A stretch of 64,000 nt of DNA, from positions 736,001-800,000 of the forward strand of contig JBBCGK010000001.1 in NCBI GenBank assembly GCA_037200965.1, read 5' to 3'. Shown here one piece after another: positions 8,190-45,221 of this stretch (position 1 is its first letter; each line of letters starts with the position of its first letter). The notes under the pieces were generated by a model, which was not told the origin of the DNA, ran no database searches, and saw only the letters and a list, made by a program, of their open reading frames with translations. Origin of the DNA: a bacterium. GTDB taxonomy: Bacteria; Patescibacteriota; Minisyncoccia; Phycocordibacterales; Phycocordibacteraceae. The position numbers and the translations under genes were made by a program.

Positions 8190-8195
8190 CACACT

Positions 8196-9645: not shown

Positions 9646-9648
9646 ACC

Positions 9649-11430: not shown

Positions 11431-11450
11431 CATTTCTTAAAGAAAAGAGC

Positions 11451-11480: not shown

Positions 11481-11496
11481 CGTTATACTTGACTCC

Positions 11497-13471: not shown

Positions 13472-13473
13472 CC

Positions 13474-13964: not shown

Positions 13965-13968
<4 letters not shown>
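13474..13968 (+). CDS. minor pilin / pseudopilin (PilV/GspI-like)
   Basis: MKAFTLVETLVAVTILTIAI prepilin-like N-terminus. Confidence 0.6.
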
Positions 13969-28025: not shown

Positions 28026-31000
28026 ATGCTCTTCCTCCTTGTACGCACACTCATAAGACCGCATACGTCCCTTCGCGCCTTTCCTTCCTTGGCAGGGAAG
28101 GGCTTCCTGTTCTTGTTCGTGCTTTGGTCCTGTTCGATAAGCGCGCTGCCTGCATACGCGGCATGGGACGGACAGCCCTATGCGCCGGGCGCAACGCTTG
28201 ACCCGGAGTGCGGGCCGAGCGACTCTAATTGCAAGACGCTTGCGAGCGCGGACGCGACGACGCTTGAAGGCAGGTCCGGAAGCTATTACCTTGCCAACTC
28301 CTTCTCGACGACCTCGGCCGCGTATTTCCTTTCTGACAATCCGGGGCTCTCGTTCGCGACCACCAGTTCTGACTATTGGCTCGCGCATCGGTCCACGTCC
28401 GACCTTCCGGAAGGCTCGCGCCTCTACTACACCGATGCCCGCGCGGACGCGCGCATTCTTGCGACAACTACTCTTGCGAATATCATCTCGCTTCCGGGCT
28501 TGTCTTTGTCCGCGTCGCAGCTTACTGGCTTCGGTATTCCTTTCTACAATTTCTTTCACGCGACGACGACCGATGCGCTCGCGGAAGGTTCCCTGCATCG
28601 CTACTACAGCGACGTGCTCGCCCGCGGAGCGCTTGGCGTATCTGCCGGGGCTCTCGCGTATGACAGCGGCACGGGAATCCTTTCGGTTGCGGGCGGATAT
28701 ACGATTCCTTTATCAGCGTCCACGACGGAGTGGGGCGAGGCATATGACAACCGCATCACGTCGGCCTCGGCGCCTCTCACGATCGCGAACCGCGAGATAA
28801 GCCTCGGCATTGTTGATGCGGGGCACGGCGGCACCGGCCTCGCCTCGTACAATCCGGGCGCACTTCTGTATGCCGATGCCGACGGAAACCTCACGACGCT
28901 TTCGCCCGGTTCTTCCGGTACCGTGCTTAAGATCGCGGGCGGCGTCCCGACCTGGGGCACGGATCTTTCAAGCGGCGGCGGGGGAGGAGCCGTAGCCTGG
29001 GCGACGACATCCGACAGCCTCGCGATCTATCCGATGGACAGCACGAACGTCGTCATCGTGGGCGCAAGCGCGACATCGTCGGCGACGAGCGTCTTTGAAG
29101 TGCACGGGAGGTCGTATTTCACGACCAATGTCGGCATCGGCACGACTTCTCCGCTCTCGGCGCTTTCCGTCGCGGGGAGCGGCTTCTTCACCGGCAACCT
29201 GACTTCGGCCAATATCACCGCCACCGGAACGCTTTCAGTCTCGGGTGCTGGCACGTCGACGTTTGCCGGGCCGTTCTTAGCAGGGAATCTTGCGGTCGCC
29301 GGACTTCCCGCGGGCCTTATAAAGGCCGGGGCGGGCGGGTATCTCCGGGGCGCCGTCGCGGGAACGGATTATTTCGATCCTGCCGCGTTCGGTTCAACTT
29401 TCTATTCTTTTTTTCACGCGACGACGACCGATGCGCTTGCCGAAGGTTCGGTGCATAAGTATTGGAGCGATACGCTCTTCGACAACCGCCTCTCCGCGAC
29501 CACGTCGCTTCCGGGCCTCTCTTCCATCGGTTCGTATACCGGGCTCATCGGCGCGAACAACGGTTCCATGTACCAAATCGCCACTTCGACCAACTTCGTG
29601 ACATCGATCGCGGCCGCATACCCGCTCTCCGTTTCCGGACCAGCCGGGGCGGTGACAATCTCGACCGCGCTCGCTACCACCACATTCCAGCACTCATACG
29701 GTTCCGCGCAGATCGGACAAATCATCCTTGCCACTTCAAGCGCGGCAACGAGTAACGGCATCACGGTGGGGCAGACCATCACGAACTCCGGCGGCGTCTT
29801 CACGTTCGCTCCGGCGGTATCCGTATCGAACATCCCCAATGCCGCCCTGCAGAATTCCGCCGTCACCGTCAACGGCACCCTGATCCCGCTTGGCGGCTCG
29901 GGTACTGTCGCCGCCGCTTCTTCCACGCTCCTTGGAGATAACAATACTTTCTCGGGCGGCAATACGTTTTTGAGCACCATCACCGGCTCCGTTTCTGGCA
30001 ATGCCGGCACCGTTACGAACGGCGTATACACGACTACTTTCGGCGGCCTTTTCGACAACCGCCTCTCCGCGACCACGTCGCTTCCGGGCCTTACGGCGGT
30101 TTCGTCCGGCCTCACGGGCGTCCTTAAGGCGGCGGCGGGCTCTCTCTCGGCGGCGGCACCGGGGATCGATTTCGAAAATCCGCTTTCGTTCCTCTATCCG
30201 CTCGCGCGCACCGCAAACAGCGTAAGCCTTGCCTTCGGGACGACAACTTCAAACACTTGGGGAGGAACCCAGACTTTCACCAACAACCCGATACTCGGCA
30301 CTCTCACCGGTCTCTTCTACGGAAACAACGGATCGCTTGCGGCGACGGCGACATCCTCCGTCACCAGCGGCACCGGCATCGGCTTTTCAGGCACGCCGGG
30401 AGCGCTTGTCGGCGGTACTCCGCTTACGATTACGAATACCGGCGTGACGTCGAATATTGCCGGGACCGGCATCAGCGTCTCGGGCGCGACCGGCGCCGTT
30501 ACGATAAGCGCGGCGAACGTGCCGAACAGCGCGCTTGAGAACTCGACGATCGGGCTTGCTTCGGGCGACTCCTCCCTTACGGTTTCCGGCTCGCCCGCCT
30601 CTCTTGGAGGCTCGCTTTCCGCCTCCCTTAACACCGCGCATCCGAATACGTTCACCGCGCTTCAGCAATTCAGCGCAAATGCGTCGACGACGGGAATCTC
30701 TTCTTCGTATGCGTCCTCGACCAAAGCCTTCCTTGGAAGCCTGTCGATAGGGAATCTGACCGGCATCCTGCGCGCGGCCGGGGGTGCCGTATCGGCCTCG
30801 CTCGTGTCCCTCGCTTCCGACGTGACCGGAGTGCTCGGCGTTATAAACGGCGGGACGGGATGGGATTCGATACAGTCCGGCAGCATCCCGTACGGAAACG
30901 GCGCCGGGGCGCTCGCCACCACGAGCCCGGGAACCAACGGGCAGACGCTCGCGCTTGTCGCCGGAGTTCCGGCCTGGATCGCGACGACAACCGCGGGCAC

Positions 31001-34000
31001 CGGCCTTACGTATTCCGGCGGCAGCTTCAATGTGAATACGGCGCAGAATGTCGCGAAGCTTTCGAACCTCACGGGGAACGGATTCGTCAAAACTATAAAC
31101 GGCGACGGCACGCTTTCGGTCGATACCAATACCTACCTCGCCTCCATTGGTCCCGCAGGACAAAGCCAGAGCGGTCCTGCGGTCGCCATTGCCTCCTCGA
31201 CCGATTCTGCGACCGGCCTTATCTCGGGCGTCGTGATAACCGGAAGCGCGAATACGCTTACCTGGAAGGCCGTGCTCTCCGGCGTCTTGAGTGCCGCAAA
31301 CGGCGGCACCGGATCGACGACGCTTTCGGGAATCCTCAAAGGAAACGGCACGGGAGTGCTTATGACCGCGGTTCCGGGAACCGACTATCAGGCGGCGGGG
31401 AACTATCTCACCGCGCTTACCGGTGACATCTCCGCGTCGGGTCCGGGTTCCGCCGCCGCGACGCTCGCGACCGTGAACGCGGATACGGGGTCGTTCGGGG
31501 GTTCGACCGCCATCCCGACTTTTGTCGTAAACGGGAAAGGGCTCGTCACATCCGCGGGCACCGCGGCGGTTATCGCGCCCGCGGGAACGCTCACCGGAAC
31601 CGTACTTGCTTCGAACATCCTCGCTTCTTCGCTTACATCCGTCGGAACGCTCGGCACGCTCTCCGTTTCCGGCCAGGCTTCGCTTGCGGGCGCGAGCTCG
31701 ACCGCCTTTTCCTCGTCCTATGCGTCTTCGACCAGTGCGTTCTTCGGAAACCTGTCCGTCGGAAGTCTTTCGGGAATACTGCGCGCGACCGCCGGAGCGG
31801 TCTCCGCGGGCGCGGTGAATCTTGCCTCGGAAATATCCGGGATGCTCGGCGTCGCAAACGGCGGCACGGGCGCGGGCTCGTTTGCGGCAGGCTCCCTCAT
31901 CTACGGAAACGGTACGGGCCCGCTTCAGAGCGCCGCGACCTCGTCCGTTTCAAACGGCGCTGGCATCTCGGTCTCGGGCGCCGCCGCCGTGGTCGGGAGC
32001 GGGGGACTCACCATCACCAACACGGGCATCACGTCCGTCACGCCGCAATTCGGTGCGGCCATCAGTAACGGCGGGCTAACCGTCGCGTCCTCGACGGCGG
32101 GCACCGACTTTTCGATAACCGGATCGGGAAGCACGATCACGTTCAATCTTCCGACCGCGTCTGCCGCAAACCGCGGCTTGCTTTCCTCCGCCGACTGGAG
32201 CGCCTTCAGCGCCAAGCAGGGCGCGCTTACGTTCGCGTATCCGCTCCAGAATAGCGCGAATACCGTATCGCTCGCCTTCGGGACGACGACCGCGAATACC
32301 TGGGGACCGGTGCAAACTTTCACGAACGTTCCCGTGCTCGGCACTCTTTCGGGAATCATTTATGGGAATAACGGATCGCTTGCCGCGACCGCCACTTCGA
32401 CGCTTGGCGTCGCGCTTGCGGACACTACGGGCTCGCTCCCGGTCGACCGGGGAGGCACCGGATCGACGACGCTCGGCGGCATTTTGAAGGGAAACGGAAC
32501 TTCCGGCATCGCGACCGCCGTCCCCGGCATCGATTATCAGCCCGCCGGGAGCTATCTCACCGGCAACCAGACGGTTACGCTTTCGGGCGACGTCTCGGGA
32601 AGCGGCGCCACTTCGATCACGACCGCGATCGGGGCGGGGAAGGTGACGAATGCGATGCTCCTGGGCGCTATTGCCGCCGCGAAGCTCATCGGAACCGATA
32701 TCACGACCGTCGGGACGATCGTAAGCGGCGTGTGGCAGGGCTCCGTGATCGGATCAGCCTACGGCGGGGCGGGAGCCGTAAGCGGAATACTCAAAGCGAA
32801 CGGTTCCGGCAACGTCTCCGCCGCCTCCGCCGGAACCGACTACGTCGCTCCGAACTCCTCGCCCACATTTGCGGGCCTCACGCTCCTAAGCGCGCTTCCC
32901 GTCGCAAGCGGCGGGACGGGCTGGAGCGCGATACAGTCCGGCAGCATCCCGTACGGAAACGGTTCCGGTGCCCTCGCGACTACCTCGAGCGGGGCGGCGG
33001 GGAGCGTGCTCGCGCTTGTCGCCGGAGTTCCGGCCTGGGTCGCGACGACCACGTTCTCCACGGGCCTTACGTATACGGCCGGAAGCGTGACCGTGAACAC
33101 CGCACAGAGCATCGCGAAGCTTTCGAACCTGACAAGCAATGGATTCGTCAAAACTATAAACGGCGACGGCACGCTCTCGGTCGATACGAACACCTACCTC
33201 GCCTCCATTGGTCCCGCAGGACAAAGCCAGAGCGGCCCCGCAATTACGATCGCAACTTCGACCGCGGGAACCGACATATCGGTGACGGCTTCCGGCAATA
33301 CGATCACGTTCAACCTCCCGACCGCATCTGCCGCAAACCGCGGCTTGCTTTCCTCGTCCGATTGGACGACATTCAACGGCAAAGTGTCGACCGGCGCGTT
33401 CACATCCTCCGGCCTCACCCTTTCGACCGGTAAGCTTCTCGGAAGAAGTTTGGACGGTACGGGAGCGGCCGAAGAGATAACGGTCGGGAGCGGCCTCTCT
33501 CTTTCTGGCGGGACTCTCTCCGCGTCTGGGAGCGGCATCAGCGCACTTGGTCCTTCGGGACAAACCCAAAGCGGTGCGACGGTCACCATTGCCACCTCGA
33601 CAAGCCTTGCAAACGGCGTCACGTCCGCGCTTGTGGTCGTGGGTTCTTCGAACACGCTTATGTTCACTCCTTCCGTTTCCGGCGTGCTCACGGTTCCTGG
33701 GGGAGGCACCGGTGCCGGTACGCTCACGGGACTCGTTTCGGGAAACGGCACGAACGCTTTCACCGCGACCGCGAACGGCGCAAACGGCCAGGTGCTTGCT
33801 ATGTCCGCCGGAGCGCCGACCTGGGTCGCAACGACCACGTTCTCGACCGGACTTACGTACACGGCGGGCACGGTGACGGTCAACACGGTGCAAAGCGTCA
33901 CGAAGCTTTCGAATCTCGCCACGAACGGATTCGTGAAAACGATCAACGCCGACGGCACGCTCTCGATCGACACCAACACCTATCTCACCTCTGCCCTCAC

Positions 34001-35105
34001 CTCAATAGGTCCCGCCGGTCAGGTACAGAACGGCCCGGCTATCGTTATCGCCACCTCGACGACCGCATTTAACGGCATTACGGTGGGCGACACGATAACC
34101 GGTTCGGGGAACACGCTTACGTGGAAGCCCAGCTGGAGCGGTTCGCTCAGCGTCCCTGGCGGCGGCACGGGGGCGACTTCGTTCGGGCAGGGCTGGATAT
34201 TCTCAAGCGGCGGCACGGGTGCCCTTGCTGCCTCGACAAGCCCGACCGTGAACTATCTTATCGCCACCTCGACGACCGCCGCTTCGATCTTCAATTACCG
34301 CGTCGGCATCGGTACGAACGCCCCCGCAACCGCGCTTGACGTGAACGGCGATATCACGATCGAGACCTTGACCTGCAACACATCGCTCGTCGGACTGGGC
34401 ACCGACGCGAACGGCAAGATCTATTGCAAGAGCGTCGTAGGTTCCGATGAGCGGCTTAAGTCGAATATCGAAAGTCTCGGCGACGAAAATGGCCTTGCTC
34501 TCATAGACTCGCTGCGCCCTGTCTCCTATGACTGGAAGGACCCGAACGTGTATGGCGGCATGTCCGGCCTCCAGTACGGGTTCATCGCGCAGCAGGCGCT
34601 TTCTGCCGCGCCGACTCTCGTCGGCACGACGTCGCCGACAGAACTGACGCCCGACGTCACGTACACGTTCAACTATTTCGGCCTCATCGCGCCCCTCGTG
34701 AAAGCGACACAGCAGCTTGACGCGCGGTTCGGCGCGATTGCTTCAACGAGCGCGGATGCGTCTCCGACGTCTTTTGCTCAGGCATTCTTTGGCCGTCTTC
34801 GGGAATGGTTCGCCGACGCGGCAAACGGAATCGAGGACTTCTATGCGAATCGTGTCCATACTTCGCAACTATGCTTAGCAGTCTCCGGCGGGGAAGAGGA
34901 ATGCTTTACGGGCGACGAGCTGAAAGCCCTTAAGGAGAAAGCCGGACAGCATGACAAGGTTCCGCCGCCCGGCATCGGGCCTGTCATCATCGAGGATGTT
35001 CCGCCGCCGGACACCACTGCCTCATCGTCCGAGCCGGAATCAGAAGCCGCTGCGGCTATGCCAGTGCCTCCCGATCCCGCTACTGACTTACCCGCGCCCG
35101 AGTAA
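28026..35105 (+). CDS. giant (2359 aa) secreted surface protein, Gly/Thr/Ser-rich repeat region, C-terminal intramolecular-chaperone (peptidase S74-like) domain and Pro-rich tail
   Basis: Signal-peptide-like N-terminus, then an AAWDGQPYAPGATLDPECGPSDSNCK module. Long near-identical internal repeats. C-terminal VVGSDERLKSNIESL…LRPVSYDWK…GFIAQQ resembles the autoproteolytic tail-fibre chaperone domain, followed by a PPPG/PPPD tail. Confidence 0.8.
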   Translation: MLFLLVRTLIRPHTSLRAFPSLAGKGFLFLFVLWSCSISALPAYAAWDGQPYAPGATLDPECGPSDSNCKTLASADATTLEGRSGSYYLANSFSTTSAAYFLSDNPGLSFATTSSDYWLAHRSTSDLPEGSRLYYTDARADARILATTTLANIISLPGLSLSASQLTGFGIPFYNFFHATTTDALAEGSLHRYYSDVLARGALGVSAGALAYDSGTGILSVAGGYTIPLSASTTEWGEAYDNRITSASAPLTIANREISLGIVDAGHGGTGLASYNPGALLYADADGNLTTLSPGSSGTVLKIAGGVPTWGTDLSSGGGGGAVAWATTSDSLAIYPMDSTNVVIVGASATSSATSVFEVHGRSYFTTNVGIGTTSPLSALSVAGSGFFTGNLTSANITATGTLSVSGAGTSTFAGPFLAGNLAVAGLPAGLIKAGAGGYLRGAVAGTDYFDPAAFGSTFYSFFHATTTDALAEGSVHKYWSDTLFDNRLSATTSLPGLSSIGSYTGLIGANNGSMYQIATSTNFVTSIAAAYPLSVSGPAGAVTISTALATTTFQHSYGSAQIGQIILATSSAATSNGITVGQTITNSGGVFTFAPAVSVSNIPNAALQNSAVTVNGTLIPLGGSGTVAAASSTLLGDNNTFSGGNTFLSTITGSVSGNAGTVTNGVYTTTFGGLFDNRLSATTSLPGLTAVSSGLTGVLKAAAGSLSAAAPGIDFENPLSFLYPLARTANSVSLAFGTTTSNTWGGTQTFTNNPILGTLTGLFYGNNGSLAATATSSVTSGTGIGFSGTPGALVGGTPLTITNTGVTSNIAGTGISVSGATGAVTISAANVPNSALENSTIGLASGDSSLTVSGSPASLGGSLSASLNTAHPNTFTALQQFSANASTTGISSSYASSTKAFLGSLSIGNLTGILRAAGGAVSASLVSLASDVTGVLGVINGGTGWDSIQSGSIPYGNGAGALATTSPGTNGQTLALVAGVPAWIATTTAGTGLTYSGGSFNVNTAQNVAKLSNLTGNGFVKTINGDGTLSVDTNTYLASIGPAGQSQSGPAVAIASSTDSATGLISGVVITGSANTLTWKAVLSGVLSAANGGTGSTTLSGILKGNGTGVLMTAVPGTDYQAAGNYLTALTGDISASGPGSAAATLATVNADTGSFGGSTAIPTFVVNGKGLVTSAGTAAVIAPAGTLTGTVLASNILASSLTSVGTLGTLSVSGQASLAGASSTAFSSSYASSTSAFFGNLSVGSLSGILRATAGAVSAGAVNLASEISGMLGVANGGTGAGSFAAGSLIYGNGTGPLQSAATSSVSNGAGISVSGAAAVVGSGGLTITNTGITSVTPQFGAAISNGGLTVASSTAGTDFSITGSGSTITFNLPTASAANRGLLSSADWSAFSAKQGALTFAYPLQNSANTVSLAFGTTTANTWGPVQTFTNVPVLGTLSGIIYGNNGSLAATATSTLGVALADTTGSLPVDRGGTGSTTLGGILKGNGTSGIATAVPGIDYQPAGSYLTGNQTVTLSGDVSGSGATSITTAIGAGKVTNAMLLGAIAAAKLIGTDITTVGTIVSGVWQGSVIGSAYGGAGAVSGILKANGSGNVSAASAGTDYVAPNSSPTFAGLTLLSALPVASGGTGWSAIQSGSIPYGNGSGALATTSSGAAGSVLALVAGVPAWVATTTFSTGLTYTAGSVTVNTAQSIAKLSNLTSNGFVKTINGDGTLSVDTNTYLASIGPAGQSQSGPAITIATSTAGTDISVTASGNTITFNLPTASAANRGLLSSSDWTTFNGKVSTGAFTSSGLTLSTGKLLGRSLDGTGAAEEITVGSGLSLSGGTLSASGSGISALGPSGQTQSGATVTIATSTSLANGVTSALVVVGSSNTLMFTPSVSGVLTVPGGGTGAGTLTGLVSGNGTNAFTATANGANGQVLAMSAGAPTWVATTTFSTGLTYTAGTVTVNTVQSVTKLSNLATNGFVKTINADGTLSIDTNTYLTSALTSIGPAGQVQNGPAIVIATSTTAFNGITVGDTITGSGNTLTWKPSWSGSLSVPGGGTGATSFGQGWIFSSGGTGALAASTSPTVNYLIATSTTAASIFNYRVGIGTNAPATALDVNGDITIETLTCNTSLVGLGTDANGKIYCKSVVGSDERLKSNIESLGDENGLALIDSLRPVSYDWKDPNVYGGMSGLQYGFIAQQALSAAPTLVGTTSPTELTPDVTYTFNYFGLIAPLVKATQQLDARFGAIASTSADASPTSFAQAFFGRLREWFADAANGIEDFYANRVHTSQLCLAVSGGEEECFTGDELKALKEKAGQHDKVPPPGIGPVIIEDVPPPDTTASSSEPESEAAAAMPVPPDPATDLPAPE

Positions 35106-36162
35106 GGGGGCCGAAGTATCCTGCGGCCGGAGCTATACCGTTTGCGACCTGATATTCCGCAAGCGCGGCCTGCGTGACCGGGCCGAAGTATCCCGTCGCT
35201 CCGGCTGCCGCGAGCGCGCGGGCTCCCGGCCCGCTGTTTTTCCCTATGAGAAATGCCTGAAGCGCGGTCACGTCGCTTCCGCGCGCGCCGACGATCAGGT
35301 CGCGATAGAAAGTTGAGGTGGTCACCGCCGTGTTTCCCGCTGCTTCAAGCGCGTCATCGATCGCGGAGGGAAGGTTCATGCCAAGCGCGAGCGCTCCGAG
35401 GAAGGTTCCGCGATAGTTTCGCACGAGCATTTCGGCATCCTCGTCTTCGTCTTCGTCATCGGCATCCTTAAGCGCGTCTTCGACCGCATCGATGCGCTCG
35501 TCGAGCGTGAATTCGCGGGCTAGGCGAGGGAACGGATCGGTCGCCGTCCTTCCGTGGCGTATCTCGAAATGGAGATGGGTTACTCCGCCTTTCGCGTCCC
35601 CGGTGTCTCCCACATACCCGATGAGGTCGCCTTTCTTGAGCACCGAGCCTCTCTTAAGCCCTTCGGCGAATTTGTCGAGATGCATGTACGCGAATGTCTC
35701 GTCCCCGGGATTCGCCGTATAGACATAGTTTCCGGCGCTCGAGCCCGTGCCCATGCTCGTCACCACCGCGTCGGTGGGGGAGACGATGTAGTCGTCCTTG
35801 GGCGCAAGGATGTCCTCGCCCTCGTGCTTGCGCGCCCCGCCGTCGCGCGGGTCGCCGAAGTTCGGCGTGATGTCCACGAGCGAAACGCCAAGCAGCACGG
35901 GTATCGGAAGGTTCTTGACGGGATCGTCGTCAAGCGCGTCGATGGCCTTCTGCGCCGCGGAAGATATGCCGCGGCGGGACGTCGCGCGTTCGATCGTCTC
36001 CTGGCTCGCGCTCCCTTCCGAGGAATTGCGCCAATAGTCGTATGTTCTCGAATACTGCGGCCGTGTCGCCGCCTGTGCGGCCGGCGGGCAAGCGGCCGCG
36101 AAGACGAACGCGCTGATAAAGGAAACGGCAAGCACCGCCCGTGCCCGGTAAGCGTATGTCAT
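35080..36162 (-). CDS. M23 family metallopeptidase with C-terminal peptidoglycan-binding repeats
   Basis: Signal peptide, LytM motifs HEGEDI…GDTGDAKGGVTHLHFEI, and two PG_binding_1-like repeats (…TALQAFLI…GYFGPVTQAAL…). Confidence 0.8.
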   Translation of the reverse strand: MTYAYRARAVLAVSFISAFVFAAACPPAAQAATRPQYSRTYDYWRNSSEGSASQETIERATSRRGISSAAQKAIDALDDDPVKNLPIPVLLGVSLVDITPNFGDPRDGGARKHEGEDILAPKDDYIVSPTDAVVTSMGTGSSAGNYVYTANPGDETFAYMHLDKFAEGLKRGSVLKKGDLIGYVGDTGDAKGGVTHLHFEIRHGRTATDPFPRLAREFTLDERIDAVEDALKDADDEDEDEDAEMLVRNYRGTFLGALALGMNLPSAIDDALEAAGNTAVTTSTFYRDLIVGARGSDVTALQAFLIGKNSGPGARALAAAGATGYFGPVTQAALAEYQVANGIAPAAGYFGPLTRARVSQ

Positions 36163-36214
36163 GCGCGAAGTATAGCCCGGATCTCCGTGAGATATGCGTG
36201 AAGAAAAGGGGAGC

Positions 36215-36745
36215 TTACCGCAATTTTTTAAATTCCCGGATTATCGGAGTATGCTCGCCTCGCGTTTCAGCACGTTTCAACTGTTGTAATTCGCCTATAT
36301 CGAAGACGCTGTCGAATCCGTCTTCAACCACAGGAGGAGTACGGATAAGCATATTGTGCATGCGCCTGATCGCGTGTTCGGGAACCATAGGTTCACGTAA
36401 ACGATTACGTTCGAGGGCGACCTCCATGGGAACGGCGGCCACCATGCCTTGCACCTTGCTTGCGCCATGTTCGCGGGCGAAGCGAATAAACTCCTTGCGT
36501 TCGAAGTCTTTGGCGAATGTCGCATCGAATACGACCGTCTCCCCGCGCCGCAACGCATCGGCGGTTCTTCGATGTGCTTCTTCCCACACTTCCTTGTTTT
36601 TTGACTGCTCAGTCGCATCGCCAAGCATTTCGAATCGTATATCATCGGGGGAGATGTAGGTATAGGAATTTTCTTCCGCAAAAGGTTTCAGAATTGTCGT
36701 TTTCCCGGAACCGGGAACGCCGATGCCCATAATAAGCTTTGCCAT
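36215..36745 (-). CDS. P-loop ATPase/kinase (AAA_33 / polynucleotide-kinase-like)
   Basis: Walker A GIGVPGSGKTT near the N-terminus and Walker B VVFDATF. The start is chosen at MAKLIMG; a longer ORF runs to 36823. Confidence 0.65.
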   Translation of the reverse strand: MAKLIMGIGVPGSGKTTILKPFAEENSYTYISPDDIRFEMLGDATEQSKNKEVWEEAHRRTADALRRGETVVFDATFAKDFERKEFIRFAREHGASKVQGMVAAVPMEVALERNRLREPMVPEHAIRRMHNMLIRTPPVVEDGFDSVFDIGELQQLKRAETRGEHTPIIREFKKLR

Positions 36746-36960
36746 GTTCTTAAGTATACCTGTGGTCAAAGTCTTATCCCCACGCGAATCATAGGAGGCC
36801 GCGCGCCTGCGGCTATACTTCAAGTACCACGGTGTTGCGCACCGAGTCTCTCCGGACCCGAAAGGGAGTGGTCCGCGTCATGCGCACCCAAACGCTCAAG
36901 CGATTCAGTCTTTATAAACATATCTCCGCGAAGCGGGGCTAACTTCATATATACCGGCGT

Positions 36961-37500
36961 ATGCGCCGCACTCGTCCTATGGCAGCTAAGAATGAAAAGA
37001 TGGATATAGATGTCTCCGAGCCAGTGCCCGAAGCGCCGTGGCCTCCGGCCGCGCCGGGACCAAGGAACGGGCGCAGGATGCGGCGCGGATGGTCCAAGAT
37101 TCTCGCCGCGCTCATCCTGGTCCTCGTCCTCGCCGCGCTTGCGTACTATTTTGTGCAATACCAGCGCCTCAGCCGCGACCCGGCGGTGGTCGCGCGGGCC
37201 GAAGACGCGAAAGTCATACAGGAACTTTCGAAGGTGATGGTGGTCCCGAACGATCCGAGCCCCGTCATTGCGACCGTGTCCGACAAAAGCAAGCTTGCCG
37301 ACCAGCCTTTCTTCGCGCAGGCGCAAAACGGCGACCAGGTCATCATCTTCCCGGTTTCGATGAAAGCCGTGCTCTATCGTCCGTCGGCCCGAAAAATAAT
37401 CGACATCGCGCCGCTTGCAACCGGTGCCTCGGCGTCTGCCGCCGCCCCGTCTCCCGTACCCGCAAAGGCGAAGGCGGCCGCGACGAGCACGACTCCTTAA
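36961..37500 (+). CDS. hypothetical membrane-anchored protein (first gene of a 5-gene + strand operon)
   Basis: One TM helix and an Ala/Pro-rich C-terminus. The antisense ORF is R-rich. Confidence 0.45.
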   Translation: MRRTRPMAAKNEKMDIDVSEPVPEAPWPPAAPGPRNGRRMRRGWSKILAALILVLVLAALAYYFVQYQRLSRDPAVVARAEDAKVIQELSKVMVVPNDPSPVIATVSDKSKLADQPFFAQAQNGDQVIIFPVSMKAVLYRPSARKIIDIAPLATGASASAAAPSPVPAKAKAAATSTTP

Positions 37501-37504
37501 ACGC

Positions 37505-38689
37505 ATGAATATCCGACTCGGCACCATTTCGCTCGTCGCACTCATTTTCTTTTCCTTCGCGCTTCCCGCGTTCGCGTCGGAAACATCCGGAACGGTGCTC
37601 GATTCGCAGAAGTTCGGATGGGGCGACAAGATCGGGTGGATCAATTTCGCACCGACCGACGGCTCCGAGTACGTCGGCCTCGTGATCACCGACAGCGCGG
37701 TGACGGGCTTCGCGTGGAGCAGGGATTTCGGATGGATACGGTTCGATCCGCCGAATTCCGGACAGGGGGTTACGAACACGCCGGAAGGCGTTCTTGGCGG
37801 TTCCGCATGGGTCGCGTCGCTCGGATGGATATCGATGGAGGGCGTAACGATAAATCAAAACGGCGAGTTCACGGGCATCGCCGGAGTCGCTGGCACCGAT
37901 ACCGCGCGTATTTCCTTCGATTGCTCGCGGTGCGGCGTGCAGACTGACTGGCGCCCGGCATCCGTGCGAGGCGGCGGCGGAAACAACGGGGGAGGCAGCG
38001 GCAACAACGGGCGTTCCGGCAGTTCCGTTCCGGACGCATCCTCGCCAGAACCCTCCTCAAGCGGTGGCGGGATCGGTATCGTGCCGTTCTTTCAGAACTT
38101 ATTTACGGGCATCTTCGGCGCAGCTCCCGGGACGAACGCCGGTACCGCTGGCGCGGCGGGCGCTGCCGTTCCGAACAGCCTGTTCGACATTTCGCTCGCG
38201 CTTGAAAAGAGCGTCGTGCCCGCAGGCGAGCCGCTCGTCGCGCTCGTCTCGTTCGCGAACTTCGGAAAGGTTACTACCGCGGCCGACCTCGCCTTCTCCA
38301 TCGTCAACGGCGAGGGAACCGTATTCGCGACATCGACCGCGCGCACGAGCGTCGAAACCGAGAACCTCGTGCGGCAGACGTTTGCTACGACGGCATTCTC
38401 TCCCGGAACGTACTGGATAAAGCTCAGGGTCACGTACGGTTCGCCCGTCATCACCGAAGACTTCAACCAGCAGTTCACAATCACGGCCGCGCAGACGTTC
38501 GCCGGGCGGTGCGGGTTCCCGTGGCCGCTGTCGTATGCCGTGGATCACATCGCGTTCCTCGCCTGGTTCGGCTGTGTATTCCCGTGGATCATCATTATCG
38601 TCACGATACTGATGATCGTCGCTCTCTTCTATTATCTTGTTCATCCGCGTGGAAAGGACCGGCATGCGGCCCGCGCTTTCTCCCGATGA
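37505..38689 (+). CDS. secreted protein with triplicated GW-containing repeats, Gly/Ser-rich linker and C-terminal TM anchor
   Basis: Signal peptide MNIRLGTISLVALIFFSFALPAFA. Repeats FGWGDKIGWINF / FAWSRDFGWIRF / SAWVASLGWISMEG. The C-terminal TM segment is hydrophobic. Confidence 0.6.
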   Translation: MNIRLGTISLVALIFFSFALPAFASETSGTVLDSQKFGWGDKIGWINFAPTDGSEYVGLVITDSAVTGFAWSRDFGWIRFDPPNSGQGVTNTPEGVLGGSAWVASLGWISMEGVTINQNGEFTGIAGVAGTDTARISFDCSRCGVQTDWRPASVRGGGGNNGGGSGNNGRSGSSVPDASSPEPSSSGGGIGIVPFFQNLFTGIFGAAPGTNAGTAGAAGAAVPNSLFDISLALEKSVVPAGEPLVALVSFANFGKVTTAADLAFSIVNGEGTVFATSTARTSVETENLVRQTFATTAFSPGTYWIKLRVTYGSPVITEDFNQQFTITAAQTFAGRCGFPWPLSYAVDHIAFLAWFGCVFPWIIIIVTILMIVALFYYLVHPRGKDRHAARAFSR

Positions 38690-39693
38690 AGTACCTGCGC
38701 ATCACGATAACGGCAGGACTTCTGTTTCGCGGTCTTGCGCTCCTGCTCGTCATTCTCGCGGTCTCGCTTACGATCCACGAGTGGGCGCTCATGGCCGAGC
38801 GGGACCACCTGTACCAAGCGGCCGCGAACGAAGCCCTCGATGAGCGGCTCGAGTCTGTCGGCGACGGGCTCACGGAGGTTTTCGCGAGCGCTCGTGAAGG
38901 GCTCCGGTCGCTTTCGTCCGTACTCGCGGTCTATTCGGGAGTATCTGACGGCCGCGCGGGCGCCGAACAGGCGCTCCGCATCGCGCGGGACGCCCACCCC
39001 GAGTATTATTTCGTTCGTTATATAGGCGCGGACGGGTCCGCGTTCGTCACGCTTTCGCCGCCCGGCATGTCGGTGGGGGACGAGACGGTATTCGATGCCG
39101 GATTCGACGGCCTCCTGCAGGACGCGCAAAATTCAATCACCGGGGACATTCTCGTGTCGGGGCTCTCGTGGTATCCCGTCATCGGCGGCACGAAGATTCC
39201 GCTCGTGTATGCAATTACGCCGGTTGTGGCGGCAGGGAAAACGTACGGATATCTCGAAGTGGCGCTTGATATACGCAACTCGTTCACGGCGGTGACGCAG
39301 GCGCAGCGCGCCGAAGACGTCCTGTTCCTTCTGGATAGCGAAGGGAAATACCTTGTCGCGCCGCACGGTACGCCAGTTCCGGAAGATACGGTCACGAGCC
39401 GGTATCCAAAAGAGGTGGTTGACCACCTGTACGGGCCGGACACAGTCGGTGCCTTCACGTACGGCGATCGGGTCTTCGCGTATGAGCACTTGCGGACGAC
39501 CGGCGTCGGCATGCGGTCGGGTGATCCCGAATTTTGGGTGCTCGTCAGCGTGTCCGATACCCGCTCCGTCTTCAGCGCGGCGCGGCGCGCGAGAAACGAA
39601 TCGGTCTTTTCCCTGGCCGTGTTCCTTCTGCTTGCGGGTCTCGCCGGCCTCTTGGTGTACCGCCTGCGCATGATGCTGCACACTCATCTATGA
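38686..39693 (+). CDS. membrane protein with periplasmic Cache-like sensor domain and no output domain
   Basis: ATGA coupling. An N-terminal TM and a C-terminal TM bracket a ~270-aa extracytoplasmic domain. Confidence 0.5.
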   Translation: MKYLRITITAGLLFRGLALLLVILAVSLTIHEWALMAERDHLYQAAANEALDERLESVGDGLTEVFASAREGLRSLSSVLAVYSGVSDGRAGAEQALRIARDAHPEYYFVRYIGADGSAFVTLSPPGMSVGDETVFDAGFDGLLQDAQNSITGDILVSGLSWYPVIGGTKIPLVYAITPVVAAGKTYGYLEVALDIRNSFTAVTQAQRAEDVLFLLDSEGKYLVAPHGTPVPEDTVTSRYPKEVVDHLYGPDTVGAFTYGDRVFAYEHLRTTGVGMRSGDPEFWVLVSVSDTRSVFSAARRARNESVFSLAVFLLLAGLAGLLVYRLRMMLHTHL

Positions 39694-40187
39694 AGCGGAT
39701 CCTGAAGCTGTCGGCGGGCCTGGGTGCGGTCCTGCTGTGCGCGGGTATCGTTCCAGCATCCGTACATGCGGCGAGCGTGGCGCTTTCCATCCCCGACCGG
39801 TACGCGCAAGTGGATCCCGACGACCGTTTTTACTACCAGCTTAACGTCCTGTATCCGGAAAACGTCCAGCGGAGGGACCTCACCGTCACTTACCGCGTCG
39901 AGGAGGGGCAGGCGACGATCGTCAGCGGCCAGTACCTGCGGGCAGTCGAGACGCAGGCATCCTTCTCCGATTACATCGTCATTCCGACCGACGCCCGGGA
40001 AGGCCTCCATACGATAGAGATCGCGGTCACCGACGGCGACAAGCCGCTCGCGCAGGTGAGCGGAAGCTTCCAGGTCAATCCGCAGGAAGACTGGGTCATG
40101 ATCTACTTCTCGATACTTCTTGCCGCCGTGCTGCTGGTCGGCGTCGGCCTGTTCGTCGAGATCCTTATCGTGTCCCGCCGCGCATGA
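39690..40187 (+). CDS. secreted hypothetical protein with C-terminal TM anchor
   Basis: ATGA coupling and signal peptide MKRILKLSAGLGAVLLCAGIVPASVHA. Confidence 0.5.
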   Translation: MKRILKLSAGLGAVLLCAGIVPASVHAASVALSIPDRYAQVDPDDRFYYQLNVLYPENVQRRDLTVTYRVEEGQATIVSGQYLRAVETQASFSDYIVIPTDAREGLHTIEIAVTDGDKPLAQVSGSFQVNPQEDWVMIYFSILLAAVLLVGVGLFVEILIVSRRA

Positions 40188-40291
40188 CTTGTCCACACCG
40201 CGAATGCTTGAACGGGACAGGTGCTGCTAGACTCAAGAGTGTTCCGGTGTTGCGCACCGCATCTGTCCCGGGGACGATTAATTCTCGTCTC

Positions 40292-43282
40292 ATGCGCACC
40301 ATCTTCACCTCTCCTTTGCTAGCGTTCGCGGGACGCTTCACCGCGGTTTTCTTTTTCGTATTTGCAGCAAACGGTATCGTCGGTTTTCCCGCCGCGCATG
40401 CGGCATGGGACGGTAATCCGTACGAGCCCGAGGAAACACTCGATCCGGAATGCTCGCCGAATCAGGGGCAGTGCCGTATCACGCAGCCCGTCAGCGCCGG
40501 AGAGAGCGTACCGGCAGGCTCGCTTCTCTATACCGACGGTACGGATTCATGGACGACGCTTCCCATCGGCAGCGACGGCAAGGTGCTCAAGATAAGCGGC
40601 GGTTCGGTCGTCTGGGGAGACGATAACGGCGGCATCTCGTACAGCGCATCCGAACAGGGGCTGCACCTTGATGCGGGCACGCACGTGCTCTCTATCACGC
40701 TTGACGGCTCGACGCTCTCCGCGTCCGGAAGCGGACTCCGGCTTGCGGCCGCCTATCCCGGTCAGGCATCCATTACGACGCTCGGTACCATTACGACCGG
40801 CACGTGGCATGGTTCCGCAGTAGCTCCGGCCTATGGCGGTACGGGCGCGTCGTCAGCTCCCGCAAACGGCCAGCTTCTCATCGGCAACGGATCGACGTAT
40901 ACGGTCGCGAACGCGAGCGGCTCGGGCGGCATACAAATCACGAACGGTTCGGGATCGCTTGGCATCGGCCTTTCCATAAGCGGATTGTCGGCAGTCTCAA
41001 GCGCCGCGAACGGCGATTATCTCGCGCTCTACGATGACAGCGCGGGGGCGAACAGGAAGATCAGCATCAGCGACCTGTTCGCGAACGTTATCGGCTCTCT
41101 TAATTTCCAAGGCACGTGGGATGCGGATGCGAACAGCCCGTCCCTTTCCGACGGCATGTGCACGGCAAGCGAAAACGGATACTTCTATATCGTCGGCACG
41201 TCCGGAGCGACGACTCTGGGCGGCGTGTCCTCATGGGACGTGGGCGACTGGCTTATCTGCGACGGCACGGGCTGGGGCAAGGTCGCGGATACGAGCGCCA
41301 TCGCGAGTGTGTTCGGGCGCACCGGCGCGGTCACTGCTCAGAGCGGGGACTATACCGGCGACCAGATCATCAATGTCGCGGCGGGCACGATCGCCTCGAC
41401 GAACGTGCAGGGCGCCATTAACGAGCTCGCAAGCGAGAAAGAAGCGGCGATAGCGTCGGGCCTTACGACCCAGTACTGGCGCGGCGACAAGACGTGGCAG
41501 ACCTTGAATACGCTCGCGGTGGCCGAGAATCCCGCCCACCTCTATTACACCGACGCCCGCGCGAGAAACGCGTTTTCTTCGGGCAGTGCATCGCTTTCGT
41601 ACGATTCCTCGACCGGCGTCATCGCCGTTACGGGCGGATACAGCATTCCGGAATCGGGGACCATCGAAGGGGATACGCTCGTCTGGGACGGATCGAACTG
41701 GGTTCCGACCGAGGGCGCGATGTCGTTCTCTTTGTCCACCGGCCTTCTCTCGATCGATGGCACCGCCTCGTCTACCGACCTTTATATCGCGGATGATGCC
41801 ATCATAGCCTCCGCCGATATCGGATCGCTTTCCGCCGATTCGCTCTCGCTTTCCGCCGCCCTTGGCGCAGGGTCAGGCGGTACCGGCATCACGAGTCCTG
41901 TCTCGGCCGGAATTCTTATCGGTACGCAGGGAGGCGGAGCGTGGCAGCAGGTCGCGACCTCGACGCTCCGCATCGCGCTTGCCGATACGACCGGAACCCT
42001 TTCGGTCGTCAAGGGCGGTCTTGGTCTCACTGCCGCGCCTTCGTTCGGGAATCTCCTCATGGGTAACGGTTCGGGCGGCTATACTTCGGTCGCGACTTCT
42101 TCGCTCGGCCTTACGTTCTCTTCGATCGCGGGGACGCTCGGGGTTTCCGCGGGAGGAACCGGCGTAGTTTCCGCGCCTTCATTCGGGGAGCTCCTGCTTG
42201 GAAACGGCTCAGGAGGATATGCGCTCGCCGCCACCTCGACTCTCGGTCTCAATCTCTCCTCGCTTACCGGAACCCTTGGCGTCGCCGCAGGCGGTACCGG
42301 AGCGGCGAGTCTTGGCCAAGGATGGCTCTATTCGACCGGCGGCGGCATCGCGCTCTCCGCGTCCACGTCGCCGACCGTGAACTACCTTCTCGCCACCTCG
42401 ACGACGCAAGCATCCGCGATTGCCTACCGTCTCGGCGTCGGGAGTACGACGCCGCTTGCGACCCTTGCGGTTAAGGGTGCGGGAACCGGCGCGGGCGTCA
42501 CGCTTCAGACGACCGACAGCGCCGACATCGCGGGCCTTACGGTTCTCGACAAGGGATTCGTCGGCATAGGCACGACATCTCCGGTGGCTGCGCTTGCGGT
42601 GAGCGCGGCGGCCGGCGTCGCGCCGTTCGCGGTGGGTTCGTCGACGGGGGGAATCAAGCTCACCGTCGCCGCGAACGGCTTCGTCGGCGTCGGCACCTCA
42701 AGCCCTACGTATCCGCTCGACGTGCGGGGAGATGTCGGCGGAACGGTCGCGCGTTTCCAGACTACGACAAATTCGCTCTTCTGCCTCCTCTCCTCGATTA
42801 CCGGGCTTTTGAGTTGCGCATCGGACGAGCGGCTCAAGAAGGACATTACGCCGCTTGACGCGTCGACGCTCGACCAGGTCCTCGCGCTCAAGCCGGTTTC
42901 GTACCACTGGAAGACCGATGATTCTTCCGCCGGACTCAAGTATGGATTCATCGCGCAGGATGTCGAGAAGATATTTCCCGAACTCGTTTCCGCCGATCCC
43001 ACCACCGGCTACAAGTCCCTTTCCACCGGCGGCATGATGCCATACGTCGTGAAAGCTCTTCAAGAGCAGCAAGTCGAAATCGAGGATCTCAAGGCGCAGA
43101 TAGCGGTGCTTGCCGCTCATCTTCCGCATGTGTCCGGAGATGACGAAACTCCCGCACCGGTTCCTCCTTCCGGGCCCGAAGAGGAGGAAGGAAGCGTGAC
43201 CCCTCCTGTTCCTGAGGAGGAAGTTCCGGCTCCCGTACCGCCGACCGTGAATACTGACGATGCTCCGGTCGCAACTCCGTAG
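40292..43282 (+). CDS. giant (~1000 aa) secreted surface protein, paralogous architecture to 28026-35105 (shared N-terminal module, C-terminal S74-like chaperone domain, Pro-rich tail)
   Basis: Signal peptide MRTIFTSPLLAFA…AAHA|AWDGNPYEPEETLDPECSPNQGQC. C-terminal CASDERLKKDITPL…LKPVSYHWK…GFIAQD, a coiled coil, then PAPVPP repeats. An alternative ATGA-coupled start lies at 40184. Confidence 0.8.
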   Translation: MRTIFTSPLLAFAGRFTAVFFFVFAANGIVGFPAAHAAWDGNPYEPEETLDPECSPNQGQCRITQPVSAGESVPAGSLLYTDGTDSWTTLPIGSDGKVLKISGGSVVWGDDNGGISYSASEQGLHLDAGTHVLSITLDGSTLSASGSGLRLAAAYPGQASITTLGTITTGTWHGSAVAPAYGGTGASSAPANGQLLIGNGSTYTVANASGSGGIQITNGSGSLGIGLSISGLSAVSSAANGDYLALYDDSAGANRKISISDLFANVIGSLNFQGTWDADANSPSLSDGMCTASENGYFYIVGTSGATTLGGVSSWDVGDWLICDGTGWGKVADTSAIASVFGRTGAVTAQSGDYTGDQIINVAAGTIASTNVQGAINELASEKEAAIASGLTTQYWRGDKTWQTLNTLAVAENPAHLYYTDARARNAFSSGSASLSYDSSTGVIAVTGGYSIPESGTIEGDTLVWDGSNWVPTEGAMSFSLSTGLLSIDGTASSTDLYIADDAIIASADIGSLSADSLSLSAALGAGSGGTGITSPVSAGILIGTQGGGAWQQVATSTLRIALADTTGTLSVVKGGLGLTAAPSFGNLLMGNGSGGYTSVATSSLGLTFSSIAGTLGVSAGGTGVVSAPSFGELLLGNGSGGYALAATSTLGLNLSSLTGTLGVAAGGTGAASLGQGWLYSTGGGIALSASTSPTVNYLLATSTTQASAIAYRLGVGSTTPLATLAVKGAGTGAGVTLQTTDSADIAGLTVLDKGFVGIGTTSPVAALAVSAAAGVAPFAVGSSTGGIKLTVAANGFVGVGTSSPTYPLDVRGDVGGTVARFQTTTNSLFCLLSSITGLLSCASDERLKKDITPLDASTLDQVLALKPVSYHWKTDDSSAGLKYGFIAQDVEKIFPELVSADPTTGYKSLSTGGMMPYVVKALQEQQVEIEDLKAQIAVLAAHLPHVSGDDETPAPVPPSGPEEEEGSVTPPVPEEEVPAPVPPTVNTDDAPVATP

Positions 43283-43288
43283 CAGGTC

Positions 43289-44122
43289 TTGGTTTGGGAG
43301 CAGCGCGCCACGCTATTCATGAGATTGTCGTTCCCCATTCGTTTTTTGTTTGTTCTGCTCGCAGCGGCAGTCCTGTCGGGGCTGTCGGTTCCTATGGAGC
43401 GGGCTTTTGGCGCGAACCAGGAAGACGGTATCCGGGCGACAGCCGCGAGCCTCGTATCCCGCGTGGCGCCCGGCGGGACGCTCTCGTTCTCGCTCACGCT
43501 TCTTAACTTCGGCACGGCGCGCCGGGCCGATGTCGTCATCACATACCGGATACTCGATGCGGCGGGCGCCGAAGCCTATTCGCAGCAGGAGACCGTCGCG
43601 GTCGACACGACCGCGAGCGTTGTGCGGCACGTGGAAGTGCCGGGGACCCTCGCGCCCGGACGCTATACGCTCGAAAGCGAAGCGCGCTATCCCTTTCAGG
43701 AAGCGCCCGCCGTCTCCCGCTTCTCGTTCACCGTCGAGCGCGCGTATCTGGGCGTCTATATCACGGACTGGCTCCGATACGGCGGCCTCGCCCTTCTTCT
43801 GGCGCTCGCGTCGTTTATCGGCGGCCGGCTCCTCATCCGGGCCAGGGCCCGCCGCGCCGTGCTCCATGACTACGCGGACAAGCCCAAAGACGAACGCATC
43901 TATTACGAAATCATAAGCGACACCGTAAGCCAGATGCGCCAGCGGGCGGGCGACCGGGCGCTTGAGATCGCGGCGAAAACGAAGGGTCTTTCCATCGATT
44001 CCGATACCGGCAAAGTTCTCAAAATCACGGAGAACCCCGCGCAAGTCGTCGCGGCGCTCGTGTCCGGGTACGAAGCGGCGCTCGGGAAGAAGGTGAGCTT
44101 CGCGCTCAGAAAGAACGGCTGA
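43289..44122 (+). CDS. hypothetical secreted/membrane protein
   Basis: Signal-like N-terminus (MRLSFPIRFLFVLLAAAVL, internal start possible at 43319) and a TM segment. Confidence 0.45.
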   Translation: MVWEQRATLFMRLSFPIRFLFVLLAAAVLSGLSVPMERAFGANQEDGIRATAASLVSRVAPGGTLSFSLTLLNFGTARRADVVITYRILDAAGAEAYSQQETVAVDTTASVVRHVEVPGTLAPGRYTLESEARYPFQEAPAVSRFSFTVERAYLGVYITDWLRYGGLALLLALASFIGGRLLIRARARRAVLHDYADKPKDERIYYEIISDTVSQMRQRAGDRALEIAAKTKGLSIDSDTGKVLKITENPAQVVAALVSGYEAALGKKVSFALRKNG

Positions 44123-44140
44123 TCACGTAATCCATATTCT

Positions 44141-44524
44141 ATGAACCAAAAAACCATACTCATCGTCGAAGACGAAAAAGATATCAGGGAAGCGCTTCGG
44201 GACATGCTCGCCGACAAGGGATACCGCGTCCTTGAGGCCGGAAACGGGCGGGAAGGCGCGGCAAGCGCTCTTGCCGAGCACCCCGACCTCATCCTTCTCG
44301 ATCTCCTCATGCCCGAAGTGGATGGCATGACAGCGCTCGGACAGATCCGGGAGGATTCGTGGGGGAAGGGCGCATCCGTCATGATCCTCACGAACGTGAA
44401 CGCGAGCAGCGAACAGGTCGTCAAGGATATCGTGACGCACAAGCCGCTTGAATACCTCATCAAGTCGGACTGGAAGATCGCCGATGTCCTGAGGAAAGTC
44501 GAGCGGGTGCTCGCGGGGAAGTAG
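44141..44524 (+). CDS. single-domain response regulator (CheY-like receiver)
   Basis: ILIVEDE…ILLDLLMPEVDG… It is a paralogue of 8196-8579. Confidence 0.8.
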   Translation: MNQKTILIVEDEKDIREALRDMLADKGYRVLEAGNGREGAASALAEHPDLILLDLLMPEVDGMTALGQIREDSWGKGASVMILTNVNASSEQVVKDIVTHKPLEYLIKSDWKIADVLRKVERVLAGK

Positions 44525-44565
44525 CTTCCGCCATGGCGCCGTTTCTTGCTCGTTTCGGCCGCACC

Positions 44566-44606
44566 TATACGACAACGGACTCCGTGCGGAGTCCGTTGTC
44601 GTATAG
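44566..44606. terminator. 19-bp perfect inverted repeat hairpin between convergent genes
   Basis: UAUACGACAACGGACUCCG-ugc-CGGAGUCCGUUGUCGUAUA. Confidence 0.5.
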
Positions 44607-44631
44607 AGTCCTCTTAGAGAAAACGATCTGA

Positions 44632-45096
44632 CTATTGATAGTCCGACGCCGTGCGTTGAGGATTCGAGAGCGCCGCGACGCCAAGCGCTACGATCGCGAG
44701 GAGCACGATGAGGGAGAGCCAGAGGAGCGGGGAAGAGAAGTCCCAGAAAGATACCGGAACATTCGCCGCGTTCGTGGTTTCCGGTATCGTCGCGTCGTTC
44801 GTGTATTCGATGACGGCCGGGGCCGCTGCCGCAGGGGCGGTCGTGTCTATCGCTCCTGGAGCCGGATAATCCTCTGCCGCAGTGTCGGCCGCTACGACGT
44901 TTCCGGTCGCGCCGTAATCGGCCGTGAGAGCCCCTCCCGCGCCGGTCGCGAGCCCCTGCGTGTATGCGTATCCCGTCTCATATCCGGTCGTGTCCGCAGC
45001 CGCGGGGCTCGCGAAGAGCAGCCCGCTTACCGCGAGAAGGCCAAGCGCGCTTATCGCCGCGCCGCTTCCGACTGCTATGCGTTTGACTGCTTGCAT
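44632..45096 (-). CDS. secreted Ala/Thr-rich protein with C-terminal TM anchor
   Basis: Signal peptide MQAVKRIAVGSGAAISALGLLAVSGLLFASPAAA. The start is chosen at the internal Met. Confidence 0.45.
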   Translation of the reverse strand: MQAVKRIAVGSGAAISALGLLAVSGLLFASPAAADTTGYETGYAYTQGLATGAGGALTADYGATGNVVAADTAAEDYPAPGAIDTTAPAAAAPAVIEYTNDATIPETTNAANVPVSFWDFSSPLLWLSLIVLLAIVALGVAALSNPQRTASDYQ

Positions 45097-45221
45097 ATGG
45101 GTGTTAGGCGTTAGGCTTCTAAACCGCTGCCGTGTGGCCCTTATGTGGCCCTGGCTAATCGGTGCGCCTAGTATGCGAAACACGCCATGAACGGTGTGTG
45201 AAAGATGGTTTGTATACTAAT

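Follow-up and report, generated by a model that had tools for sequence, protein, structure and literature searches.

Why does one gene of a Patescibacteriota genome contain long stretches of DNA that resemble one another, and do these stretches still recombine? The gene is a giant, uninterrupted open reading frame (ORF) of 2359 amino acids (aa) at 28026-35105 on the + strand of the window, which is the whole stretch of 64,000 nucleotides (nt) analysed here (positions 736,001 to 800,000 of contig JBBCGK010000001.1, assembly GCA_037200965.1). It carries all of the repeats and is identical to NCBI MEJ0053947.1, 'MAG: tail fiber domain-containing protein' (MAG, metagenome-assembled genome). A sequence-only reading of the locus had described long near-identical intragenic repeats that encode ~100-aa blocks, would permit RecA-mediated expansion or contraction with changes in the length or antigenicity of a fibre, and would be a hazard for assembly. 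Our analysis partly confirmed this observation and partly supported its interpretation. In our judgement the repeats are in-frame copies, scattered along the gene, of structural modules that probably build up a giant fibrous protein. This protein is probably trimeric and located at the cell surface. Two of the copies, known here as A1 and A2, would have arisen by duplication and then undergone patchy gene conversion.

We mapped the repeats using a repeat finder, gapped self-BLASTN, a chunked protein self-search and an exact-repeat search; all of the repeats and domains described within the gene lie on the + strand. The repeat finder identified a three-copy family at 30947-31203, 33008-33264 and 33794-34050. 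Together with self-BLASTN, these copies define block A1 (30834-31268, aa 937-1081), block A2 (32895-33314, aa 1624-1763) and block A3 (33741-34184, aa 1906-2053), the last of which has a 4-codon insertion after ...TNTYL. By gapped self-BLASTN, A1 and A2 are 81% identical over 363 nt (30845-31203 against 32906-33264), A2 and A3 are 75% identical (33020-33262 against 33806-34060), and A1 and A3 are 69% identical (30936-31271 against 33783-34130). The copies are spaced by 2061 and 786 nt, each divisible by 3. They do encode repeated protein blocks of a fibre-like protein, as had been suggested, although the blocks measure about 120-145 aa rather than ~100 aa.

Near-identity is a property of about 100 nt of one pair, while overall the copies diverge by 19-31%. 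The A1 core (31078-31180), encoding NGFVKTINGDGTLSVDTNTYLASIGPAGQSQSGPA, is ~95% identical to the A2 core (33139-33241), with exact tracts of 35 nt (31080-31114 and 33141-33175) and 44 nt (31131-31174 and 33192-33235). All of the 5-6 differences within these 103 nt are synonymous. The original claim of ~95% for 31078-31180 and 33138-33240 thus holds for the core, with a small correction of register (+2061), 31078 pairing with 33139. The peptide quoted with it (aa 1011-1053) was also correct. The proposed near-identical third copy at 33880-34020 could not be upheld, since the A3 core (33925-34039, with NADGTLSIDTNTYLTSALTSIGPAGQVQNGPA) is about 75-80% identical to the A1 and A2 cores, and 63-75% identical overall. 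Measured against the 85% that the sequence-only reading had named as the lowest identity compatible with its view, the full-length repeats fall below and the short cores stay above.

We also found several other repeated blocks within the gene. The similarity previously noted between 32143-32200 and 33307-33364 is a true repeat of ~90% identity after a 3-nt shift (register +1167), but it forms part of a longer repeat of 133 nt and 79% identity, with a 29-nt exact tract, consisting of block D1 (32083-32215, encoding ...STAGTDFSITGSGSTITFNLPTASAANRGLLSSADW...) and block D2 (33250-33382). D2 directly adjoins A2, and the module order is thus mosaic, unlike that of copy 1. In addition, block B1 (30181-30355, encoding ...PLSFLYPLARTANSVSLAFGTTTSNTWGGTQTFTN...) is 71% identical to block B2 (32224-32398), block E1 (31302-31413, encoding GGTGSTTLSGILKGNGT...PGTDYQ) is 72% identical to block E2 (32451-32562), and an N-terminal repeat at 28530-28619, encoding FGIPFYNFFHATTTDALAEGS..., is 77% identical to 29388-29477. 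A 44-nt island at 29475-29518, encoding LFDNRLSATTSLPGL, is 98% identical to a partner at 30048-30091 that was recovered by the repeat finder and self-BLASTN; 41 nt are exact, and the blocks around the island are otherwise only ~42% identical in protein. This island may represent short-patch conversion. Its exact portion (29478-29518 and 30051-30091) encodes FDNRLSATTSLPGL, a peptide motif that recurs in many homologues.

The longest exact repeats measure 44, 41, 35, 34 and 31 nt, with a chance expectation of ~1e-9 by our own rough estimate. Chance can be excluded because there are no other exact repeats of at least 30 nt in the 64-kb window. Tandem Repeats Finder (TRF) reported 0 arrays at a score of at least 40, and the copies are dispersed, in-frame and direct. 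The block offsets of +681, +337, +687, +383 and +389 aa show that the repeats are interleaved in different orders. The giant gene is a mosaic of shuffled modules rather than the product of one segmental duplication.

At the DNA level, the comparison of A1 with A2 gave a proportion of nonsynonymous differences (pN) of 0.03 and of synonymous differences (pS) of 0.32 in the core, and pN of 0.18-0.25 and pS of 0.39-0.47 in the flanks; an unrelated alignment saturates at pS of about 0.7. We take A1 and A2 to be related by descent but not young. At 65 of 92 degenerate codons that specify the same amino acid the two copies use the identical codon, compared with 36.2 expected from the codon usage of the gene. 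Their synonymous differences are clumped into 21 runs, as few as which were obtained in none of 20,000 shuffles (runs test), and the longest concordant run was significant in a Sawyer-type permutation test for both A1-A2 (p=0.003) and A2-A3 (p=0.004). From the 81% identity over 363 nt, the excess of codon identity and the way in which identical tracts of 31-44 nt take turns with clumps of synonymous differences, we infer an intragenic duplication followed by patchy gene conversion. A further 35-nt island of 94% identity is shared between the giant gene (34242-34276) and a paralogous gene downstream (42371-42405).

Internal repetition is common to the wider family. Half of 120 family members hold exact internal repeats of at least 30 aa, and duplication is therefore active within the family. 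The longest exact internal repeat has a median length of 31 aa, reaches at least 100 aa in 15 of the 120 proteins and has a maximum of 612 aa; by this measure the gene in the window ranks 55th.

The repeat core represents a ~51-aa module, present in the giant gene at 30978-31193, 33039-33254 and 33825-34052, with the consensus TfsTGLTr..nt.tVNtsQNI..LSNLTsNGfVKTsgg.GtLS.DT.tYLt. (205 copies). From a set of 119 giant homologues this motif had appeared to be rare and lineage-specific, a view overturned by an exhaustive profile search with a 72-aa block, which matched 834 cluster representatives with E<=1e-3, a number that falls to 324 with E<=1e-10. The proteins that carry the module are 125-2640 aa long and contain 1-6 copies each. 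Modules from different proteins are on average 66% identical and those from one protein 74%, a weak tendency towards greater likeness within a protein, and 38 of 112 module copies have their nearest neighbour within their own protein. The three copies in the giant gene are 82% alike over the 51 aa at the protein level, compared with 80-84% to copies in unrelated proteins. The copy on metagenome contig L012 encodes an identical 20-aa peptide, although almost all third codon positions differ. That contig encodes another giant ORF (741-8321, - strand; at least 2526 aa) of lower G+C content, with a single module copy and a different body and C-terminus. Because protein identity within the gene is no higher than to foreign copies, the amino-acid identity of the cores is best read as strong purifying selection on a widespread module and not as recency.

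The module has no Pfam model. Some of its carriers match tail-fibre families of the PHROG database, and a scan with the consensus pattern found the motif on 38 viral contigs of IMG/VR, compared with 1 viral locus when a narrower, gene-specific pattern was used. On one of these viral contigs (L036) the module-carrying ORF is located between a tail-spike-like ORF and a tail-fibre-assembly-like ORF. The module looks like an uncurated domain family common to giant proteins of Patescibacteria and to uncultivated phages, judging from these matches.

The fibrous nature of the protein is suggested by its composition and by its C-terminus. Glycine, serine, threonine and alanine make up 54% of the residues of its body and charged residues ~5%. 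The only domain found by Pfam is the intramolecular chaperone Peptidase_S74 (PF13884) at aa 2140-2199 (34443-34622), with 57 of the 58 profile positions (1-57) covered by a match of 52 bits (cutoff 22; E 8.8e-14). Its SDERLK motif includes Ser2140 (codon 34443-34445) and Lys2145 (34458-34460), both of which are invariant in an alignment of 23 C-termini; this Ser/Lys pair, five residues apart (S-D-x-R-x-K), we take to be the catalytic dyad, as in endoNF. A phmmer search of the Protein Data Bank (PDB) with the whole protein gave no match, whereas the C-terminus alone matched the tail fiber 8jov (E 9e-6). The AlphaFold2 (AF2) model of aa 2080-2330 has a predicted local distance difference test score (pLDDT) of 85-94 across the S74 core, and the sole Foldseek matches at high probability (0.87-1.00, ranks 1-11) were 7dc3 (E 1.3e-4, TMt 0.61) and 3gw6 and 3gud (E about 1e-2 each). 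The modest template modelling (TM) scores (0.25-0.61) are explained by the fact that a single chain of a trimeric domain was modelled. After the S74 domain, the region aa 2200-2359 (34623-35105) contains a conserved extension, W[LF]xDAxNGIxxxFA...H...LCV...C[VI]T..QL.AL, with two nearly invariant cysteines, followed by a Pro/Ser/Thr-rich tail. In the AF2 model, this post-S74 region contains helices and a small beta-hairpin.

The N-terminus (aa 1-45, 28026-28160) resembles a signal peptide, with basic residues, the hydrophobic stretch GFLFLFVLWSCSISALP and then AYA|AW, as judged by eye. The predicted mature start, AWDGxPYxPxxTLDPECxPxxxxC, is common to the giant protein and to the paralogue at 40184-43282. 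Homologues of the giant protein have lengths of 1300-3900 aa, come nearly all from Parcubacteria/Paceibacterota and give local matches only; some of them terminate in S74 plus DUF5011. No close orthologue was found in the searched collections, the best match to the C-terminus being 39% identical and from a Ca. Adlerbacteria contig, and NCBIfam has no family for the giant fibre or for the paralogue. In many of the homologues an N-terminal helix-turn-helix (HTH) domain of DNA-binding type, HTH_17 (PF12728), precedes a hydrophobic segment, and the giant repetitive region comes next. It is odd for an HTH, putatively cytoplasmic, to be joined to an extracellular fibre; the protein in the window has its signal-peptide-like start instead.

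We propose the following sequence of events. An intragenic duplication of a two-module block would have given rise to A1 and A2, which patchy gene conversion would then have homogenised, most strongly where purifying selection keeps the DNA alike. Each extra block would lengthen the shaft of the fibre, and the S74 domain is predicted to drive folding of the trimer and then to release itself by cleavage at Ser2140. If the cores recombined unequally, the protein would change in frame by 687 or 262 aa. Such events should be rare at 19-31% divergence, and there is no sign of them happening now.

In three assemblies of this population the overlapping parts agree at 99.98-100% identity, no alternative junction was seen there, and no sign of length or antigenic variation emerged. 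An independent Logan contig (SRR28211700) matches 33206-46162 at 100% identity and covers exactly 30 nt of the 44-nt repeat at 33192-33235 before it stops at 33206. Logan assembles with k=31, and a de Bruijn graph built with that k-mer length should break at this position (k-1 = 30 nt). A contig of the short-read MAG GCA_015655515.1 ends at 28314, within codons for the common motif GSYYLANSFSTTSA, and the next known contig starts at about 39374 (~39.4 kb); the break at 28314 may be due to paralogues elsewhere that contain GSYYLANSFSTTSA-encoding DNA. The suspected hazard for assembly is therefore real in that contigs fragment at or in the gene, but collapse is not evident, as the 960-kb contig spans the whole repeat region with distinct copies.

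The explanation given above has to be weighed against four others. One is selection acting without any recombination, in which ancient module copies were retained independently and the likeness of their DNA comes from amino-acid constraint plus codon bias. This is consistent with the protein identity within the gene, which does not exceed that to foreign copies, with a peptide kept across saturated synonymous sites and with a pS of 0.3-0.45, as expected of copies that are not young. Nevertheless, we regard it as unlikely, since identical codons are nearly twice as frequent as expected (65 where 36 would be predicted) and synonymous changes are strongly clumped, the likeness runs for 363 nt across two adjacent modules in one order, and a 41-nt exact island is found within a context of 42% identity. 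At the other extreme, the locus might be actively variable, with RecA-mediated unequal recombination between the cores often changing fibre length or antigenicity within the population. RecA-type recombination in Escherichia coli needs roughly 25-30 bp of identity, and the direct, in-frame repeats do contain exact tracts of 31-44 nt. This part of the RecA argument stands. The 19-31% divergence of the copies would strongly depress homologous recombination. The mosaic, conversion-like pattern, the very recent large duplications in family members and the breaks of other assemblies in or at the giant gene would also be in keeping with a variable locus. However, overall repeat identity is just 69-81%, a tandem array is absent, the scanned neighbours contained neither silent cassettes nor recombinase genes, the three assemblies agree without an alternative junction, and k-mer ambiguity alone accounts for the contig breaks. 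We therefore think it quite unlikely that the locus is variable in this sense.

The two remaining explanations concern the nature of the locus itself. A prophage tail-fibre gene with ordinary shaft repeats could be proposed on the basis that an S74 domain is a usual feature of phage fibres and tailspikes, that the paralogue matches tail-fibre PHROGs and that the module is found on viral contigs beside tail genes. It is highly improbable for this gene: no phage structural, packaging or integration gene was found among ~30 neighbouring ORFs scanned, all of whose matches are cellular; G+C content is even across the gene region, with no shift; the N-terminus is signal-peptide-like and is not a virion-attachment domain; and the homologues are proteins of 1300-3900 aa from many Patescibacteria, often with an N-terminal HTH and a membrane segment. 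An assembly artefact, or the template and variable repeats of a diversity-generating retroelement (DGR), might be suspected in a repeat-rich gene where other assemblies fragment. Either is extremely improbable, as the copies differ at 19-31% of positions yet keep one 7-kb open frame, an independent contig agrees completely with 33206-46162, the 83 mismatches have no adenine bias (A 14, T 18, C 25, G 26), and the scanned ORFs, which are part of those in the window, yielded no reverse transcriptase. A DGR, a tandem contingency locus, a prophage and a mis-assembly were thus rejected, on the grounds of the unbiased mismatches, the lack of tandem arrays, the cellular context, and the diverged copies with their intact frame and identical contig, respectively.

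Duplication with patchy conversion in a surface fibre remains the reading that we prefer, and several results weigh against parts of it. The longest run of identical codons taken alone was not significant (p=0.14), and the gene-conversion signal comes from ~360 nt, to which regional heterogeneity of mutation or codon constraint could contribute. A tblastn search of the module against 50,697 GenBank phage records gave no match, and the giant protein had no PHROG match at E<1e-3. The AF2 monomer of the repeat region (aa 880-1110) was poor, with a pLDDT of 58 and a predicted TM score (pTM) of 0.24 from a 13-sequence alignment. The Sec signal peptide was assigned by eye alone, and the cell-surface location, trimerisation and self-cleavage of the giant protein are predictions.

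The codon-position G+C content of 28026-35105 is 0.54, 0.60 and 0.73 for first, second and third positions (GC1/2/3). Antisense ORFs of 258-335 aa overlie the repeat region at 30387-31163, 32886-33893 and 33194-33979 (- strand), and are probably by-products of high G+C content; the + strand is favoured because of the GC3 of 0.73 in its frame and because of all the homology evidence.

The paralogue mentioned above is an S74-capped fibre gene at 40184-43282 (+), 5 kb downstream, encoding 1032 aa with a likely start at Met37. In addition to the common post-signal motif and the S74 domain, it shares one module with the giant protein at 61% identity. It matches 15 PHROG families, of which 10 are in the tail category (tail fibre, long tail fibre and tail protein). 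One of its segments, 'GTWDA..N.P.L.DG...G.FY.V...G...........GDW..C.G.GW', matches phrog_29238.

The neighbouring genes include a type IV pilus cluster and genes for LigA, GatA, two histidine kinases, a response regulator, ThiF and a methyltransferase, as well as an M23 peptidase with a peptidoglycan-binding domain, GH18, release factor 2 (RF2), FtsX, PyrG and four tRNAs. PyrG is 74-77% identical to Kaiserbacteria/Paceibacterota sequences, and 89-91% identical to its counterparts in the closest relatives. On these matches, the giant gene is assigned to the chromosome of a Kaiserbacteria-like Patescibacteria genome as a putative fibre gene, and not to a prophage. The pilus cluster (3735-13968, + strand), 14-24 kb upstream of the fibre gene, encodes PilM, PilB-like and PilT-like T2SSE ATPases, PilC (T2SSF), a prepilin peptidase and several small ORFs, one of which has an N_methyl pilin motif. 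The RF2 homologue (54306-55184, + strand) starts 51 nt after a tRNA-Thr (54181-54254) and has only 292 aa, the prfB profile being matched from position 113 with 327 bits (cutoff 370). Related contigs (L052 and L053) encode RF2 proteins of 292 and 287 aa, and an N-terminally short RF2 seems to be typical of the lineage.

In practical terms, repeats inside a giant fibre gene are ordinary for this protein family, and their value lies in marking a documented point of assembly fragmentation. The wider interest is in a large and unstudied family of chromosomal, S74-capped giant fibres in Patescibacteria, organisms that are thought to be cell-attached, in a highly conserved ~51-aa module that hundreds of protein clusters and some viral contigs contain, yet for which there is no Pfam model and sequence searches gave no solved structure, and in the signs that modules are homogenised by short-patch recombination. 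It is possible, though we put it forward tentatively, that Patescibacteria (Paceibacterota) took over parts of phage tail fibres, namely the self-cleaving S74 cap and the ~51-aa shaft module also used by their phages, for giant Sec-exported surface fibres that contact a host, and that these modules are shuffled and made alike by recombination within genes, between paralogues and possibly with phages, with the result that fibre length and specificity evolve fast. If the fibres do mediate host contact, their modular make-up would offer a handle on the host specificity of uncultured episymbionts.

Several known systems resemble this locus in part. In Embp, in the alpha C / Rib family and in the stalks of trimeric autotransporters, in-frame repeats set the length of the fibre and recombination can change the copy number; the repeats of such adhesins are usually tandem and >90-95% identical in DNA. 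The gene in the window likewise has repeated in-frame modules, but its copies lie apart from one another, with other modules in between, and are 69-81% identical. The giant surface proteins of Vampirococcus lugosii have been proposed to form a fibrous surface and to mediate host recognition, and interaction domains of the WD40, TPR and PKD type were reported in them (PMC8080830). As in that organism, we found a very large predicted surface protein together with a reduced genome and type IV pili, whereas the family described here is built of tail-fibre-like modules and is often terminated by S74. Our literature search found no publication on S74 or tail-fibre-like giant proteins in Patescibacteria. 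The MyRF ICA domain (7dc3), which falls in the same class of self-cleaving trimerisation domains, matched the C-terminal model best in structure; however, MyRF is a membrane-bound transcription factor of eukaryotes, its flanking domains are unrelated and the identity is only 16-17%. There is also a parallel in architecture with phage fibres and tailspikes that have a C-terminal chaperone, such as endoNF (3gw6), the GA-1 neck appendage (3gud) and the phage fibre 8jov. Like these, the giant protein has an S74 domain, a Ser-x4-Lys pair and a matching predicted fold, with a long Gly/Ser/Thr/Ala-rich repetitive region upstream of S74, and its ~51-aa module is also found beside tail genes on viral contigs. 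Unlike them, it is several times longer, its module has no match among GenBank phages and the whole protein none among PHROGs, and it is encoded on a cellular chromosome, with a signal-peptide-like N-terminus in place of a virion-attachment domain.

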